A DNA stretch of 64,000 nt from Promethearchaeia archaeon (GCA_029856155.1 JAHQWL010000055.1:64001-128000), one strand, 5' to 3'. Positions 13,015 through 64,000 are shown, numbered from the stretch's first letter. Numbers and translations are program-made. Notes: generated from the sequence alone by a model not told the origin.

Positions 13015-13325
13015 ATTATTTTACACCTAACTTAACTAGAAAAATAAACGATGTTTAAATACTTTTCATGAAATGGATTAATGATAGTTTGATCACTATT
13101 TTATCTATACTTGAGAGAGAAAATCGAGAAGATCATAGATTATAAATAACTTCACACATTCTCAACAGGAATCTCTTCTCGTCTCTCTCTATTCTATGAA
13201 ATGTTTTATATTATTATTTTAATTTTATTGGTTAGTCAGGATGTGAATAATAAAACCTTAAAAATATATATGAATTTTTTAAATAGGGTTATTATATTAC
13301 ACTTAAATTAGCTATTTGATATTTT

Positions 13326-15527
13326 ATGACTATATTTAATACAATTCCAGATAAGCTTCCTGCATGGTATTTAAATGATTTAAAAAAAGAAAAATATGAT
13401 GACGTTATTCTTTTTGCTTTAGCTGTTTTTGGATCTCATAGTTTAGAAGAACTTGTGAATGATCCAAGCAAATCTATTAATAATCGAATGGAAGAGAAAT
13501 TATTTCATAAATGGGCAGAGAAATTAATAGATGATAATTATATTGAGAAATATGAGAAGTTTGAAAAGACATATTATAAAATAAGGTCCAAGGGTAAAGA
13601 TAGGGTTATGAAACTTACAAATAATCCGATTGTAAAACAAGTTATAAAAGGTTTTAATGAATTAATAGGAATTTCTCCAGTCAATCAAGAAATACAATCT
13701 AAATCTCTTTTTGATTATAAAATTTCCTATCAAGATTATATTTTTGGTCTATTATCAATAATCTGGCGTATTACTCACATCATTAATGCTGGAGCTGCTC
13801 GGAATAAAATAAAACCTGAGTTGAAAATTTCTCTTGGCAAATCTTTAGAAGAGAATGCTATTAATTTTGCAAACAATGTAGCAATTCAGTATGAAGACAT
13901 TCAATATACTTATAAAGAAATGAATGAAAGGATAAACCAATATGCTAACTTCTTCCTATCCTTGGGTTTAAAAAAAGGAGATATAATGAATGTTTTTTTA
14001 GAAAACAGACCTGAATTGCTGTTTATAATAGGAGCAATGTCTAAAATTGGTACCATTGCTTCATTAATTAATACCCGTCAACGATCTGCTACACTTTCTC
14101 ATAGTCTACGATTAAATCCTGTTAAGCTTTATATTATTGGAGAAGAACTGTATGAAGCATTTGAAGAAGTAAAACCAAATTTAGGATTATCTAATGAAGA
14201 ACAGTTATTTTTCTTACCAGATAAGAATCAAATGGAACTCCCTAATGGGTATATTGATCTAGCAGAGGAAGTAAAAGATCTAGATATTAAAAATCCTCCC
14301 ACCACAACAGAAATGATAGGAAACGATACTTATGCTTATATTTTTACCTCTGGGACAAGTGGTCTTCCAAAAGCAGCCCCCATGAAGAACATTCATATGA
14401 TCAGTGCTATGAATGGATGGGGAATTGTTGCTATGCATATGCAGCCTGAAGATGTTGTTTATATTTCCCTTCCATTATTTCATAGTAATGCTATTCATAT
14501 TGGATGGGCTTCAGCTCTCGCAGGCGGTTCGACAATAGCGCTAGCACGTAGATTTAGTGTTAAAAATTTCTGGAAAGATGTTATAAAATACAAGGTGACT
14601 TGTTTCAATTATATTGGAGAAATCTGTCGTTATCTTTATAATCAACCACCAAGTCCAGAGGAAAGAAATCATAGAGTATATAAGATCTGTGGGAATGGTC
14701 TTAGACCAGAAATATGGAAAGAATTTAAAGAAAGATTTGGTATAAGAGAAGTTTATGAACACTATGGAATGACTGAAATGAATAGTATGTTCTGTAATTA
14801 TTTTAATTTAGATTGTACAGTAGGATTTAATTTTTCTCAATATTCTATAGTTAAATATGATGTTGTAAATAATGAACCAATTAAAAGTGATAATGGTTTC
14901 CTTCAAGAAGTTAATGAGGGTGAAGTAGGTTTAGTATTAATGAAAATGGGGGATGAATATATTTTTACTGGTTATAGTTCTAAAGATGAGACAGAGAAAA
15001 AATTAACTCGTGATGCATTTGAAATAGGAGATTTATGGTACAACACAGGAGATATGCTTAGAAATATTGGTTATAAACATGCCCAATTTGTTGATAGACT
15101 TGGAGATACATTCCGTTGGAAAGGTGAAAATGTATCCACATCAGAAATTGAAGATATAGTTGTATCTTTTCAACAAGTTGAACACGCTTCTGTTTATGGG
15201 GTTGAAATTCCAGGAACTGAAGGACGTGCAGGTATGGTGTCGATAATGGCAACATTAGATCATAAAGAATTTAATTTTGATAGCTTTCTAATAACTTTAA
15301 AAGAAAACTTACCACCATATGCTATTCCTAAATTTGTACGATTTTTAGCGGAATTATCCACAACAAGTACTTATAAGATTCAAAAATTTGATATGAAAAA
15401 AGTTGGATTTGATATTAATAAAACGAGTGATCCAGTTTATGTACTATTACCGGAAAATCCAAATTATACACTTTTAACACAAGAGATATACAAAAATATA
15501 CTAAATTTAAAATATCGTAAATTTTGA
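13326..15527 (+). CDS. FATP/FadD6-type long-chain acyl-CoA synthetase with N-terminal winged-helix domain (copy 1)
   Basis: YIFTSGTSGLPKAA, YIGEICRYL, GNGLRP and DRLGDTFRWKGENVST (FATP signature); ~100-aa wHTH-like N-terminus. Confidence 0.92.
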   Translation: MTIFNTIPDKLPAWYLNDLKKEKYDDVILFALAVFGSHSLEELVNDPSKSINNRMEEKLFHKWAEKLIDDNYIEKYEKFEKTYYKIRSKGKDRVMKLTNNPIVKQVIKGFNELIGISPVNQEIQSKSLFDYKISYQDYIFGLLSIIWRITHIINAGAARNKIKPELKISLGKSLEENAINFANNVAIQYEDIQYTYKEMNERINQYANFFLSLGLKKGDIMNVFLENRPELLFIIGAMSKIGTIASLINTRQRSATLSHSLRLNPVKLYIIGEELYEAFEEVKPNLGLSNEEQLFFLPDKNQMELPNGYIDLAEEVKDLDIKNPPTTTEMIGNDTYAYIFTSGTSGLPKAAPMKNIHMISAMNGWGIVAMHMQPEDVVYISLPLFHSNAIHIGWASALAGGSTIALARRFSVKNFWKDVIKYKVTCFNYIGEICRYLYNQPPSPEERNHRVYKICGNGLRPEIWKEFKERFGIREVYEHYGMTEMNSMFCNYFNLDCTVGFNFSQYSIVKYDVVNNEPIKSDNGFLQEVNEGEVGLVLMKMGDEYIFTGYSSKDETEKKLTRDAFEIGDLWYNTGDMLRNIGYKHAQFVDRLGDTFRWKGENVSTSEIEDIVVSFQQVEHASVYGVEIPGTEGRAGMVSIMATLDHKEFNFDSFLITLKENLPPYAIPKFVRFLAELSTTSTYKIQKFDMKKVGFDINKTSDPVYVLLPENPNYTLLTQEIYKNILNLKYRKF

Positions 15528-57051: not shown

Positions 57052-57366
57052 TTAATGATTTTTGGGATGTAAAAACTTCAACCAATAAGATCCAAGATAG
57101 TTTGGTTCCAAAATTGTCCCGGCTTTTAACCTATTAGCAAAATCATCATCACTTAATGCTTCTAATGCTAATAAAGATATCAATTCATATTGTTCATCAT
57201 CATTTACAACTTGTCTATGATGCTTGCTCCATCCGCTTAAAGAAGGGTGCATATTAGTAATGACTTCGCGACGTTTTCCTTCGACAGGCATCCCAAATGT
57301 GCCTCCTGCAATTTTTCCTGTCCAGCTACCCCAAATTTTTTGGAGCAAAAAATTTTTATCAACCAT
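57052..57366 (-). pseudogene. Truncated ADP-ribosylglycohydrolase paralog (N-terminal ~100 aa only)
   Basis: Closely matches aa 1-100 of 49286..50650, then stops; the DTDCN motif is missing. Confidence 0.85.
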
Positions 57367-57503
57367 AATCTATCCTAATTTTTTCTTTAATGCTTAATTT
57401 AAAAAACATAGTAAAGTCTTAAATTTATATTAAATTTTATAAATAGACATATTATATTAGGATTAATATTTATTTAATTTTTTGGAAAACAGTAGAATTC
57501 AAC

Positions 57504-59696
57504 ATGAGCATAAATACCATACCTGATAAAATCCCTAAAAAATTCTTGATGAGATTAAAAAGAGGAAAGTATGATGATACTATTCTTTTTGCTCTAGCGG
57601 TTTTTGGACCTCATAAAATTAAAGAACTCGTTAATGATGTAAGTGACTCTATTTCTGATAGGATGGATATGGAGTTATTTTATGAATGGGCAGACAAATT
57701 AAAGACTAATGGATTCATTGAAGATTATAAAAAAGATGATGACATCTATTTTAAAGCAACAGAGAAGGGTAAGGATGAATTATTATCGAGAGTAGAAAAC
57801 ACTTTTATGATACGGTATTTAAAAACGTTTTTTTCGCAGTGGCTAGGACCAATTGAACCTGAAAAAGAAAATAAATCAAAATCACCGGATGTCTTAAAAT
57901 ATAGGGATATTATATTTGGTCTCTTATCTGTTTACTGGAGATTATGTGATTTCTTCATTACTATAATAAGAGGTGCAAAGATAGGACCAGATGAAGATAT
58001 CTCACTTGGTACAAGTCTAGAATATAATGCAGAACAATATTCTGGTAATCCTGCTATTTATTATGAAGATGTTATGTATACATATAAAGAATTCAACGAA
58101 TTAATTAATCAATACGCTAATTATCTTCTTTCTTTAGGTGTAATTAAAGGAGAAGTAATTAATATATTCGTGGAAAACAGACCTGAATTGTTATTTTTAA
58201 TTGGAGCAATGTCAAAAATTGGTACTATAGGAGCATTAATTAATACAAGACAAAGATCGTCAACACTTCTGCAAAGCTTAAAACTAAATCCAGTAAAAAT
58301 CTATATTATTGGAGAGGAACTTATTGAACCTTTTGAAGAAATAAAATCAGATTTGGGCTTAACTGGGAAGGAAAAACTCTTTTTTTTGAAGGATAAGGGG
58401 AAAATTGATATACCAGAAGATTTTGTTGATCTTAAAAAAGAGATTGAGGAAGAAAGTAAAGAAAATCCATCAACTAAAACAAAAATAAAGGGAAAAGATA
58501 CCTATATTTATATTTTTACTTCTGGAACAACAGGACTTCCAAAAGCAGCACATATTCGGAACATGTATACGGCAAGCTCAATAAATACCTGGGGTAAAGC
58601 AGTATTACATATGACACCTGATGACATTATGTATATATCTCTTCCCTTGTTTCATAGTAACGCGCTCCATATTGGATGGTCAGCCGCTATTAGAGGTGGA
58701 TCAGCAATAGCTATTGCTCGAAGATTTAGTGTTCGAAATTTCTGGGAAGATATAAAAAAATTTAATACTACATGTTTTAATTATATCGGAGAAATCTGTC
58801 GCTATCTTTTTAATCAACCACCAAGTCCGGAGGATCGAAAACATAGAGTTTACAAGATTTGTGGGAATGGTCTTAGAGCTGAAATATGGAAAGAATTCAA
58901 AGAACGATTTGGTATAAGAGAAGTCTATGAACACTATGGAATGACTGAAATGTGGGGAATGTTTTGTAACTATCTTAATTTAGATTGTACTATTGGATAT
59001 AACGCTGCTCCATATGCTATTGTAAAGTATAACATTGAAAATAATGAACCTGAAAGAGATAAAAATGGTTTTTTACAAAGAGTTGAAGAGGGTCAAGCAG
59101 GACTATTGATTATACAAGCAGTGTCTGAATACATTTTTGCTGGTTATACGGATACAATAGCATCCAAGAAAAAATTATTATATGATGTATTTGAAAAGGG
59201 TGATGTTTGGATGAATGCAGGTGATATAGTACGGAATATTGGATATAAACATGCTCAATTTGTTGATAGACTTGGTGATACATTTCGATGGAAAGGAGAG
59301 AATGTATCTACCACAGAAGTTGAGGAAGTAATCTCTTCTTTTGAATCAATTGACCACATTTCTGTGTATGGAGTTGAAATTCCAGGAACTGAAGGACGAG
59401 CAGGGATGGCATCAATACTAACAACTGTTAAACATGAAAAATTCGACTTTAATCCTTTTTTAAGAACAATGGAGAGTAATTTACCTAAATATGCTATCCC
59501 AATATTCATTCGATTCTTGTCTGAATTATCAACAACAAGCACATACAAAATCCAGAAATTTGACAAGAAGAAAATTGGTTTTGATATAAATAAAACCAGT
59601 GACCCTGTTTATGTATTATTGCCAGAAAGTCCAAATTATACACTTTTAACTCCTGAAATTTATGAAAGAATTCTACAAATAAAATATAGATTTTAA
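57504..59696 (+). CDS. FATP/FadD6-type long-chain acyl-CoA synthetase with N-terminal winged-helix domain (copy 2)
   Basis: YIFTSGTTGLPKAA and DRLGDTFRWKGENVST; colinear with 13326..15527 including the N-terminal domain. Confidence 0.92.
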   Translation: MSINTIPDKIPKKFLMRLKRGKYDDTILFALAVFGPHKIKELVNDVSDSISDRMDMELFYEWADKLKTNGFIEDYKKDDDIYFKATEKGKDELLSRVENTFMIRYLKTFFSQWLGPIEPEKENKSKSPDVLKYRDIIFGLLSVYWRLCDFFITIIRGAKIGPDEDISLGTSLEYNAEQYSGNPAIYYEDVMYTYKEFNELINQYANYLLSLGVIKGEVINIFVENRPELLFLIGAMSKIGTIGALINTRQRSSTLLQSLKLNPVKIYIIGEELIEPFEEIKSDLGLTGKEKLFFLKDKGKIDIPEDFVDLKKEIEEESKENPSTKTKIKGKDTYIYIFTSGTTGLPKAAHIRNMYTASSINTWGKAVLHMTPDDIMYISLPLFHSNALHIGWSAAIRGGSAIAIARRFSVRNFWEDIKKFNTTCFNYIGEICRYLFNQPPSPEDRKHRVYKICGNGLRAEIWKEFKERFGIREVYEHYGMTEMWGMFCNYLNLDCTIGYNAAPYAIVKYNIENNEPERDKNGFLQRVEEGQAGLLIIQAVSEYIFAGYTDTIASKKKLLYDVFEKGDVWMNAGDIVRNIGYKHAQFVDRLGDTFRWKGENVSTTEVEEVISSFESIDHISVYGVEIPGTEGRAGMASILTTVKHEKFDFNPFLRTMESNLPKYAIPIFIRFLSELSTTSTYKIQKFDKKKIGFDINKTSDPVYVLLPESPNYTLLTPEIYERILQIKYRF

Positions 59697-62223: not shown

Positions 62224-63444
62224 ATGATTGGAACTATACAATTTGAGGATTTAGATTTAAATTTTGGATATTCTTGTATGCCCGATAGATTATATTATTA
62301 TTCAGAAGAAGAAAATGAATTCCGTATGGATGTGCGTAAATGGTGCGAAGAGAATATACAACCCGTTACTGATAAGATTGATAAGGAGAGAAATACAAAA
62401 TTAGCTGTGGAAACTCTACGAAAAATGAAACCATATCTAAATATAGTAATTCCTGAAGAAGCTGGGGGATTAGGTAAAGGAATAGTTTATCGTACGATTT
62501 TTGGTGAAGAGTTATCTGCTTTTAATTATTCCATCGGAACTATATTTGGCGCTTCCTCTTGTTTATTTACTGGACCTATCATTGAGTATGGGACTTCTGA
62601 ACAAAAAAAGAAATATCTTACAGGTATTGCTGATGGTACAAAAATTGGGGCAATAGGGATAACAGAACCTACAGGAGGTTCTGATGCTATAGGAGGAATG
62701 AATTTAAGAGCCAGAAAACAGGGAGATTACTATATATTAAATGGAGAAAAAAGATTTATAACTAATGGAAGTGTTGCAGACTACATTTGTCTATATGCGG
62801 TTACTAATGACCAAGTTAATAGACATCAAGGTATTTCAGCTTTCATCTTTGAGACAGAGACACCTGGATTTGAGGTTATCAAAGATTATAATCATATGGG
62901 CCGTAGAGGAATGCCAAATTCTCATCTCCGATTTGATAATTGTAAAGTACCTGTCGAAAATTTACTCTATAAGGAAAATGAAGGAGTTGAGGTATTGATG
63001 TTTGGACTTGATGGTGAGAGAACATTTACAGCATCTCAATATATTGGTTTAGCTAGAAGTGCATTCGAAGTTGCATATAAGTATGCTCATAGGAGGATTC
63101 AATTTAAAAAACCAATTTACTCATTTGAAGGAATTTCATTTAAACTTAGTGAGATGTACATGGATATAGAATTAAATAGGATTGCAATGGCACAAATAGC
63201 CCGAATGCTCGACGATGGACATTACTGTAGAGCATCAGTTGCTGCTGTTAAAGCTAAACTTGCAGATGCTACTGTTAAAATTACCCAAGATGCTATTCAG
63301 ATTGTTGGTGGTATAGGTTATTCTGAAGAATATCCCTTAGAACGCTATTACAGAGATGCAAAAATAGGGCAAATTGCAGCAGGTTCAACTGAAATAATGA
63401 AGTATTTAATCTCAAGAGAAATGATAAGAATGTGGGGTAAATAA
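62224..63444 (+). CDS. Acyl-CoA dehydrogenase
   Basis: ITEPTGGSD, LNGEKRFITNG, RIQFKKPI, IQIVGGIGY..EYPLERYYRDAK, GSTEI. Confidence 0.95.
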   Translation: MIGTIQFEDLDLNFGYSCMPDRLYYYSEEENEFRMDVRKWCEENIQPVTDKIDKERNTKLAVETLRKMKPYLNIVIPEEAGGLGKGIVYRTIFGEELSAFNYSIGTIFGASSCLFTGPIIEYGTSEQKKKYLTGIADGTKIGAIGITEPTGGSDAIGGMNLRARKQGDYYILNGEKRFITNGSVADYICLYAVTNDQVNRHQGISAFIFETETPGFEVIKDYNHMGRRGMPNSHLRFDNCKVPVENLLYKENEGVEVLMFGLDGERTFTASQYIGLARSAFEVAYKYAHRRIQFKKPIYSFEGISFKLSEMYMDIELNRIAMAQIARMLDDGHYCRASVAAVKAKLADATVKITQDAIQIVGGIGYSEEYPLERYYRDAKIGQIAAGSTEIMKYLISREMIRMWGK

Positions 63445-63448
63445 AGCT

Positions 63449-64000
63449 ATGGGAAATAAAATTACTTTAGACATTAGAGATAACATTGCTACTATAAAAT
63501 TAATGGATCCGGAAAAATTAAATCCACTAAACAAAGAAACTGGGAAAGAATTATATGAAACTTTAGAAAATCTTAAGGATAATAATGAAGTGAGATGTTT
63601 AATAATTACAGGTTCAGGCAGAGCTTTTTCTACTGGAGGGGACATAAAACAATTTAAATCAAGTATTGAAAATGGTACACCAAGTCAGGTTATGGAGGAA
63701 ACATTGAGTAGTCTGTATATGATTGCGAAAACCTTGCGACTTTATCCAAAACCAGTAATAGCAGCCGTGAATGGATGGGCTGTTGGTGCAGGAATGAATC
63801 TTGCTTTATCATGTGACTTTATTATAGCGTCAGAAAAAGCAAAATTTAGACAATCATTTAGTAAACTTGGTTTAATACCTGGATTTGCTGGAACAATCCT
63901 ACTCAGTCGCCAACTTACATGGCAGCAAGCTACTCAAATGGCATTTTTTGGCGATACGTACACTTCTGAAGAAATGTCTAAACTTGGCTTTATAAATGAA
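63449..64000 (+). CDS. Enoyl-CoA hydratase/isomerase, 3' end runs off the window
   Basis: Manual translation: MGNKITLDIRDNIATI...PEKLNPL...TGSGRAFSTGGDI...PKPVIAAVNGWAVGAGMNLALSCDF. Confidence 0.92.
   Translation, partial: MGNKITLDIRDNIATIKLMDPEKLNPLNKETGKELYETLENLKDNNEVRCLIITGSGRAFSTGGDIKQFKSSIENGTPSQVMEETLSSLYMIAKTLRLYPKPVIAAVNGWAVGAGMNLALSCDFIIASEKAKFRQSFSKLGLIPGFAGTILLSRQLTWQQATQMAFFGDTYTSEEMSKLGFINE

Follow-up and report, generated by a model that had tools for sequence, protein, structure and literature searches.

Two long-chain acyl-CoA synthetases encoded in a 64,000-nucleotide window of a Promethearchaeia archaeon genome (the whole stretch of DNA analysed here) each carry an additional winged-helix domain at the N-terminus. 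The residue pattern of this domain suggests, with a probability of about one in two, that it is a repurposed interaction or regulatory module tethered to the synthetase, rather than a DNA binder.

Gene 1 (13326..15527, + strand) encodes a 733-aa fusion of a winged helix with a FATP-type long-chain acyl-CoA synthetase, and gene 2 (57504..59696, + strand) encodes a 730-aa paralogue of the same architecture. Both ORFs lie exactly where the initial annotation had placed two FATP-type synthetases with an extra N-terminal domain, and the proteins share 62 % identity over 728 aa. Both score above the cut-off of 625 bits for NF006134 (PRK08279), at 710.3 bits for gene 1 (aa 139–731) and 692.9 bits for gene 2 (aa 153–729), and the Pfam AMP-binding match (PF00501) starts at aa 173–174 (E 4.5e-52 and 4.7e-53, respectively). 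The AMP-binding_C family (PF13193) is above its cut-off in gene 1 (28.0 bits) and just below it in gene 2 (23.0 against 24.5 bits). The adenylation motifs T-S-G-T-S/T-G-L-P-K, Y-G-M-T-E and the FATP-type G-D-T-F-R-W-K-G-E-N-V are intact in both translations, and both genes encode complete FATP/FadD6-type long-chain acyl-CoA synthetases of predicted activity. Neither reaches the mycobacterial exception model NF038342 FadD6 (535.7 and 511.8 bits against a cut-off of 975). A homologue of 726 aa is annotated publicly as a plain 'long-chain-acyl-CoA synthetase'.

The winged-helix domain occupies aa 1–115 of each protein (13326..13670 in gene 1 and 57504..57848 in gene 2, both on the + strand). In gene 1 it is supported by the AF2 model, Foldseek, VIA-align and PDB profile matches, and in gene 2 by alignment and by its place in the same clade of the domain tree. 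In both proteins it is followed by a linker of ~20 aa (in gene 1, aa 116–134; 13671..13727, + strand), which is variable in the alignment and modelled with low confidence (pLDDT 35–42 over aa 112–133 of the full-length model of gene 1), and then by the synthetase body (in gene 1, 13728..15527, + strand), defined by the NF006134 match and by alignment with bacterial N-termini. Profile matches place the start of the body at about aa 135–139. In the N-terminus alignment, the first residue of Chitinophagales (bacterial) and unfused archaeal relatives falls at a position equivalent to aa ~122 of gene 1, so the extension comes to ~120 aa (the 115-aa domain plus a linker), and bacterial FadD6-type enzymes are indeed without the domain, as had been proposed. 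The body opens with a conserved hydrophobic helix (aa 135–160). Its interpretation as a transmembrane anchor was rejected: the Kyte–Doolittle 19-residue means of 1.4–1.7 are not above those of a buried segment of the enzyme core, and the bacterial homologues have the same helix. A third FATP-like synthetase in this genome (590 aa; L042:1477-3249, G000:C88) has neither the winged helix nor the hydrophobic N-terminal helix, and scores 614 bits with NF006134, just below the cut-off. Since this paralogue is unfused, the domain is taken to be accessory to catalysis.

An AF2 model of the N-terminal domain, built from an alignment of 32 homologous domains (pLDDT 80.3, pTM 0.73), has helices at residues 13–20, 24–35, 40–43 and 57–69, a wing formed by strands 73–78 and 81–86, and further helices at 88–97 and 101–114; in gene 1 a Pro-rich tail, T-I-P-D-K-L-P, precedes the helices. 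Foldseek returned only wHTH DNA-binding proteins from the PDB (LmrR/PadR, MarR and ScoC), with a best E of 4e-3 at probability 1.00 and TM 0.50–0.60 to LmrR/PadR/MarR. VIA-align against representatives gave Z 9–10 to MarR, PadR, HxlR and Sso10a-type proteins, and a sequence profile search of the PDB recovered AspA (E 0.007) and about 20 PadR entries, many at E 0.04–0.6. A language-model look-up, used as a lead only, pointed to ArnR1-like and DUF4364 archaeal wHTH clusters. The model and the searches support a winged helix-turn-helix to which C-terminal helices are added. In Pfam, no family is matched at threshold by the 32 members, genes 1 and 2 included. Sub-threshold matches are nearly all to winged-helix families: DUF4364 in 19 of the 32, and also HTH_45, DUF6293_C, PadR, F-93 WHD, PaaX and Penicillinase_R. 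Pfam PadR (PF03551) gives no match at its gathering threshold and is seen below it in 3 of the 32 domains (best E 0.02), those of genes 1 and 2 not among them. The original description of a PadR/ArsR/MarR-like wHTH therefore holds for the fold, but not for membership in Pfam PadR or MarR; the domain family is missing from Pfam. Prediction of a two-copy homodimer of the domain scored 0.10 against a mark of 0.42, which counts neither for nor against a dimer. A full-length AF2 model (mean pLDDT 51, from 13 sequences only) is too poor for the docking of domain and enzyme to be read from it, although it still gives the winged-helix secondary structure, the low-confidence linker and the helix at aa 135–160.

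Among solved structures, PadR/AspA-type proteins (LmrR, B. subtilis PadR and pNOB8 AspA) have the same topology of three helices, wing and C-terminal helices, and have the wing motif Y-x-I/L-T-x-x-G in common with the N-terminal domain. The latter differs in its extra conserved Pro-rich tail, its fusion to an enzyme, and the acidic start of helix 3 and tip of the wing. The highest structural Z (~10; rmsd 2.0–3.8 over 72–76 residues) is to the MarR family, but there is no match to it at sequence level, and the long N- and C-terminal dimerization helices of MarR are absent.

Searching 1.84 billion representatives with a profile of the domain recovered just 71 proteins, nearly all matching from residue 1. 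Genes 1 and 2 match the family alignment at E 4.6e-46 and 8.4e-45, respectively, and have the N-terminal I-P-x-K-I-P tail. An architecture search across the phylum, suggested in the initial annotation, located the domain in 34 of 400 genomes (including this one), all belonging to one family (f1). It is carried on synthetase frames of ~735 aa in 20 species-level genomes of three genera, twice in this genome (G000), G235 and G247; on frames of 576 to 1071 aa in 13 genomes, one frame being cut at a contig end; and as a stand-alone 113-aa protein in one genome. The long non-synthetase members consist of the wHTH, a conserved helical middle region and TPR arrays (TPR assigned by Pfam), and this is the architecture of most of the family. 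The N-terminal domain of such archaeal proteins (L024, L034–L036) is homologous to that studied here, at E 1e-13 to 1e-20 with a single sequence, and has the same tail; they differ in a basic, near-invariant helix 3 and in having a TPR array in place of an enzyme. A HEAT-repeat protein (L039, E 2.7e-5) was judged a spurious match. Outside the window, this genome also encodes a distantly related sister family, whose proteins have two wHTH units in tandem. An N-Y-P-P motif stands before each unit, the recognition helix of each opens with a canonical Q-S-S/T-L-S, and the units are succeeded by the helical middle region (L-N-H-P motif) that the TPR-linked proteins also have. The copies are L004/L054 (C54:34060-34296), L051 (C67:1104-1376), L050, L052/L053 (C54) and L055 (C102), several of them clustered on contig C54.

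In a maximum-likelihood tree of 84 domains with a midpoint root, the synthetase-linked domains all group in one clade (support 98/91), which points to a single fusion; six short fragments that have the same linker also fall in it. The sister group is formed by four proteins of 102–118 aa, of which L033 at least is encoded by a complete stand-alone ORF, and the rest of the tree is made up of TPR-linked domains. The simplest history would be one fusion followed by duplication into at least four subclades; the apparent direction of change across the tree depends on the midpoint root. At the L033 locus (L033:1-1833, G182:C74), two ORFs of 211 and 99 aa, possibly pieces of a transposase, precede the 113-aa winged-helix gene by ~540 nt.

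Comparison of 25 non-redundant synthetase-type domains with 40 TPR-type domains reveals a marked difference in helix 3 and the wing. In the TPR type, helix 3 starts with N56 (31/40), K57 (37/40), N58 (29/40) and T59 (39/40) and continues with H/Y61, K62 and K65 (27/40), giving a near-invariant basic helix, N-K-N-T-F-H-K; the wing tip reads R/K77-x-G79-K/R80. In the synthetase type, by contrast, position 56 is D/E in 24 of 25 domains, position 57 is E in 14 of 25 (or K), position 58 is variable (entropy 2.84 bits), position 59 is L, position 61 is free and position 65 is E/D/N, and the wing tip has D79 (18/25), N/D80 and E81 (17/25). The net charge of helix 3 and wing is +3 to +10 in TPR-linked domains and −7 to +2 in synthetase-linked domains. 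At the level of sequence, the recognition helix and wing of the synthetase-type domains do not offer the basic, conserved surface expected for reading DNA. The TPR-linked relatives look like ordinary DNA-binding regulators, whereas the enzyme-linked clade and its stand-alone sisters appear to have lost the DNA-reading signature and to have acquired acidic residues, several of which are conserved.

Constraint on the domain is nonetheless evident. P8, P12, L29, L32, G36, R54, F60, L67 and G90 are invariant over 32 family members, and 13 full-length fusion proteins (59–70 % full-length identity to gene 1) all have T6, P8, K10, P12, Y24, D25, H38, E42, R54, F60, L67 and G90; W63 and F60 are conserved aromatic residues. 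The extensions of genes 1 and 2 are 47 % identical to each other, and the invariant residues are kept in 20 species-level genomes, far above chance. The conservation in two diverged paralogues emphasized in the initial annotation is thus upheld, and the conserved motif string quoted there is present in the sequence. Such constraint argues that the acidic shift reflects a change of function rather than decay.

The replacement of the basic helix-3 start and wing tip by acidic residues is the reason for reading the domain as a protein-interaction or regulatory module. With its basic signature lost, the synthetase-linked winged helix would no longer read DNA. One possibility is that it instead links the synthetase to a basic partner; another is that it packs against the synthetase itself, thereby regulating the activation of fatty acids for beta-oxidation. 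Both a DNA-binding trigger enzyme and a wHTH reused as an interaction module had been put forward at the outset; the residue pattern speaks against the former, and the latter fits better. Several observations weigh against a module of this kind. The genes around the fusion genes differ from one subclade to another, and synteny points to no partner. Some of the basic residues that characterize DNA-binding wings persist in the synthetase type, or are even more strongly conserved there (R54, invariant; K/R85, 24/25; K89, 19/25), and charge is indirect evidence. In addition, the two genes share an upstream block, rare elsewhere in the genome, which resembles the operator of an autoregulator.

This block is bipartite. 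Before gene 1 it consists of CTTAAA, 18 nt and TAAATAGGGTTATTATATTA (13257..13299, + strand; 27–69 nt before the start codon), and before gene 2 of CTTAAA, 17 nt and TAAATAGACATATTATATTA (57418..57459, + strand; 45–86 nt before the start codon); the consensus of the second half is T-A-A-A-T-A-G-(A-C-A/G-G-T)-T-A-T-T-A-T-A-T-T-A. The 20-mer of the block occurs in the window only at these two places (0.08 expected), and the strict bipartite pattern has three matches in the 4.1-Mb genome, two of which are those at genes 1 and 2. A genome-wide search for the 20-mer with 3 mismatches gave 15 matches against 11 in the control, and the 20-mer is therefore not a dispersed repeat. The block is present at the same place before the orthologues in G180, G228 and G247. 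As the two proteins are only 62 % identical, neutral intergenic DNA should have lost such a block, which argues that it is a functional cis-element. The arrangement of a TATA-like sequence followed by a conserved stretch makes it a plausible candidate for a repressor site, tied no more to the winged-helix domain than to another factor. In the G228 orthologue of gene 1, the first half of the block is overlapped by a perfect 13-nt inverted repeat (L005:1907-1940; TAATAAAATCTTA, 8-nt spacer, TAAGATTTTATTA), which is not conserved in other loci.

The block is relevant to the possibility that the fusions are BirA-like trigger enzymes, in which the winged helix would bind DNA, probably the upstream block of its own gene, with binding modulated by occupancy of the synthetase with fatty acid, acyl-AMP or acyl-CoA. 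A single chain would then unite a FadD-like enzyme with a FadR-like sensor. Enzyme–wHTH regulators such as BirA, PutA and NadR are an established class, and BirA, a wHTH–biotin protein ligase, likewise has an N-terminal winged helix on an adenylate-forming enzyme. The wHTH fold, the DNA binding of its closest solved relatives, the strongly basic and conserved recognition helix of the TPR-linked relatives, the retention of R54, K/R85 and K89, and the position of the rare block 27–86 nt upstream of both paralogues and at the G180, G228 and G247 orthologues are all in keeping with such a mechanism. However, all 25 synthetase-type domains have acidic or variable residues at the beginning of helix 3 and at the tip of the wing, with loss of N-K-N-T, and the enzyme folds of BirA and the fusions are unrelated. 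No palindromic operator was found: a scan of five upstream regions gave many AT-rich imperfect inverted repeats and no palindrome conserved across the loci. The block is also missing before the other fusion subclades (L056, L060 and L011–L023), which have conserved upstream sequences of their own. A relaxed form of the bipartite pattern occurs at background frequency in 135 genomes, such that only matches beside fusion genes are meaningful, and the overlap with a TATA-like sequence means that the block may be a promoter bound by another factor. On balance, a DNA-binding trigger enzyme is conceivable but on the unlikely side. Its fullest form, a self-contained fatty-acid sensor-regulator in which the acyl-adenylate/acyl-CoA state switches binding of the winged helix to its own upstream block, is unlikely.

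The winged helix could also be a small-molecule sensor that takes up a hydrophobic ligand (fatty acid or acyl-CoA) and provides the enzyme with a site for allosteric control or product feedback. The best Foldseek matches include structures of LmrR, one of the PadR/MarR proteins that bind ligands; the domain has two conserved aromatics (W63 and F60), and the substrates of the enzyme are hydrophobic. These aromatics are, however, most simply explained as core residues of helix 3, any pocket is hypothetical, and with no PadR or MarR membership at sequence level we consider this role improbable. A decaying, functionless relic of a fusion is very improbable: the domain does change more rapidly than the body, the paralogues being 47 % identical over the domain and 62 % overall, but it is intact, with no stops or deletions, in 20 genomes, three genera and at least four subclades, and has more than 20 invariant positions. 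Heterodimerization with TPR-type relatives was considered and rejected as a general mechanism, as the two types co-occur in only 2 of the 31 genomes having either, and this genome has only the distant tandem-wHTH relatives.

Gene 2 is situated 2.5 kb from acyl-CoA dehydrogenase and enoyl-CoA hydratase genes (62224..64000). Its orthologues (81 % identity) lie in a row comprising an acyl-CoA dehydrogenase, a Zn-alcohol dehydrogenase, an aldehyde:ferredoxin oxidoreductase, the fusion gene and an MBL-fold hydrolase (L058:31-7071, and also L059 and L061), a row that is not kept in the window. This arrangement suggests a route from alcohol or aldehyde to acyl-CoA, and the gene context as a whole fits fatty-acid activation, possibly from alcohols or aldehydes, for beta-oxidation. 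Divergent from gene 2 is a 104-aa ORF (57052-57366, − strand), which matches the first 79 of 287 positions of an ADP-ribosylglycohydrolase (E 1.8e-5, just below the cut-off) and is probably a truncated gene remnant. Outside the archaea, the synthetase bodies most similar to those of the fusions occur in Chitinophagales MAGs (L062:1340-5791 and L063:1467-5833; 42–46 % identity), each preceded by two genes resembling the acyl-CoA dehydrogenase of the window, a hint that the enzyme was exchanged laterally between this archaeal lineage and Bacteroidota.

The bodies of the fusion proteins share the motifs TSGTxGxPK and D-R-x-G-D-T-F-R-W-K-G-E-N-V with FadD6/PRK08279 and FATP/SLC27, and the difference lies at the N-terminus. 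In bacterial FadD6/PRK08279 enzymes the chain begins with the hydrophobic helix (~aa 122 here). In eukaryotic FATPs this place is taken by a membrane anchor, and the N-terminus serves to anchor or target the protein. A winged helix at this position appears to be confined to this archaeal synthetase clade, and no description of a winged-helix–acyl-CoA synthetase architecture was found in the literature. It would represent a third N-terminal solution for the FATP family, taken over from a lineage-specific family of probable regulators. Should the domain have kept its DNA binding, the fusions would be a new type of trigger enzyme, and if they are self-contained sensors, the first BirA-style trigger enzyme for lipid metabolism, in an Asgard archaeon. 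If, as we favour, the domain is an interaction module, it would provide a clean natural example of a DNA-binding fold converted to another use, and would mark a partner through which Asgard archaea control or localize the activation of fatty acids; the lipid metabolism of these archaea is relevant to models of eukaryote origins.
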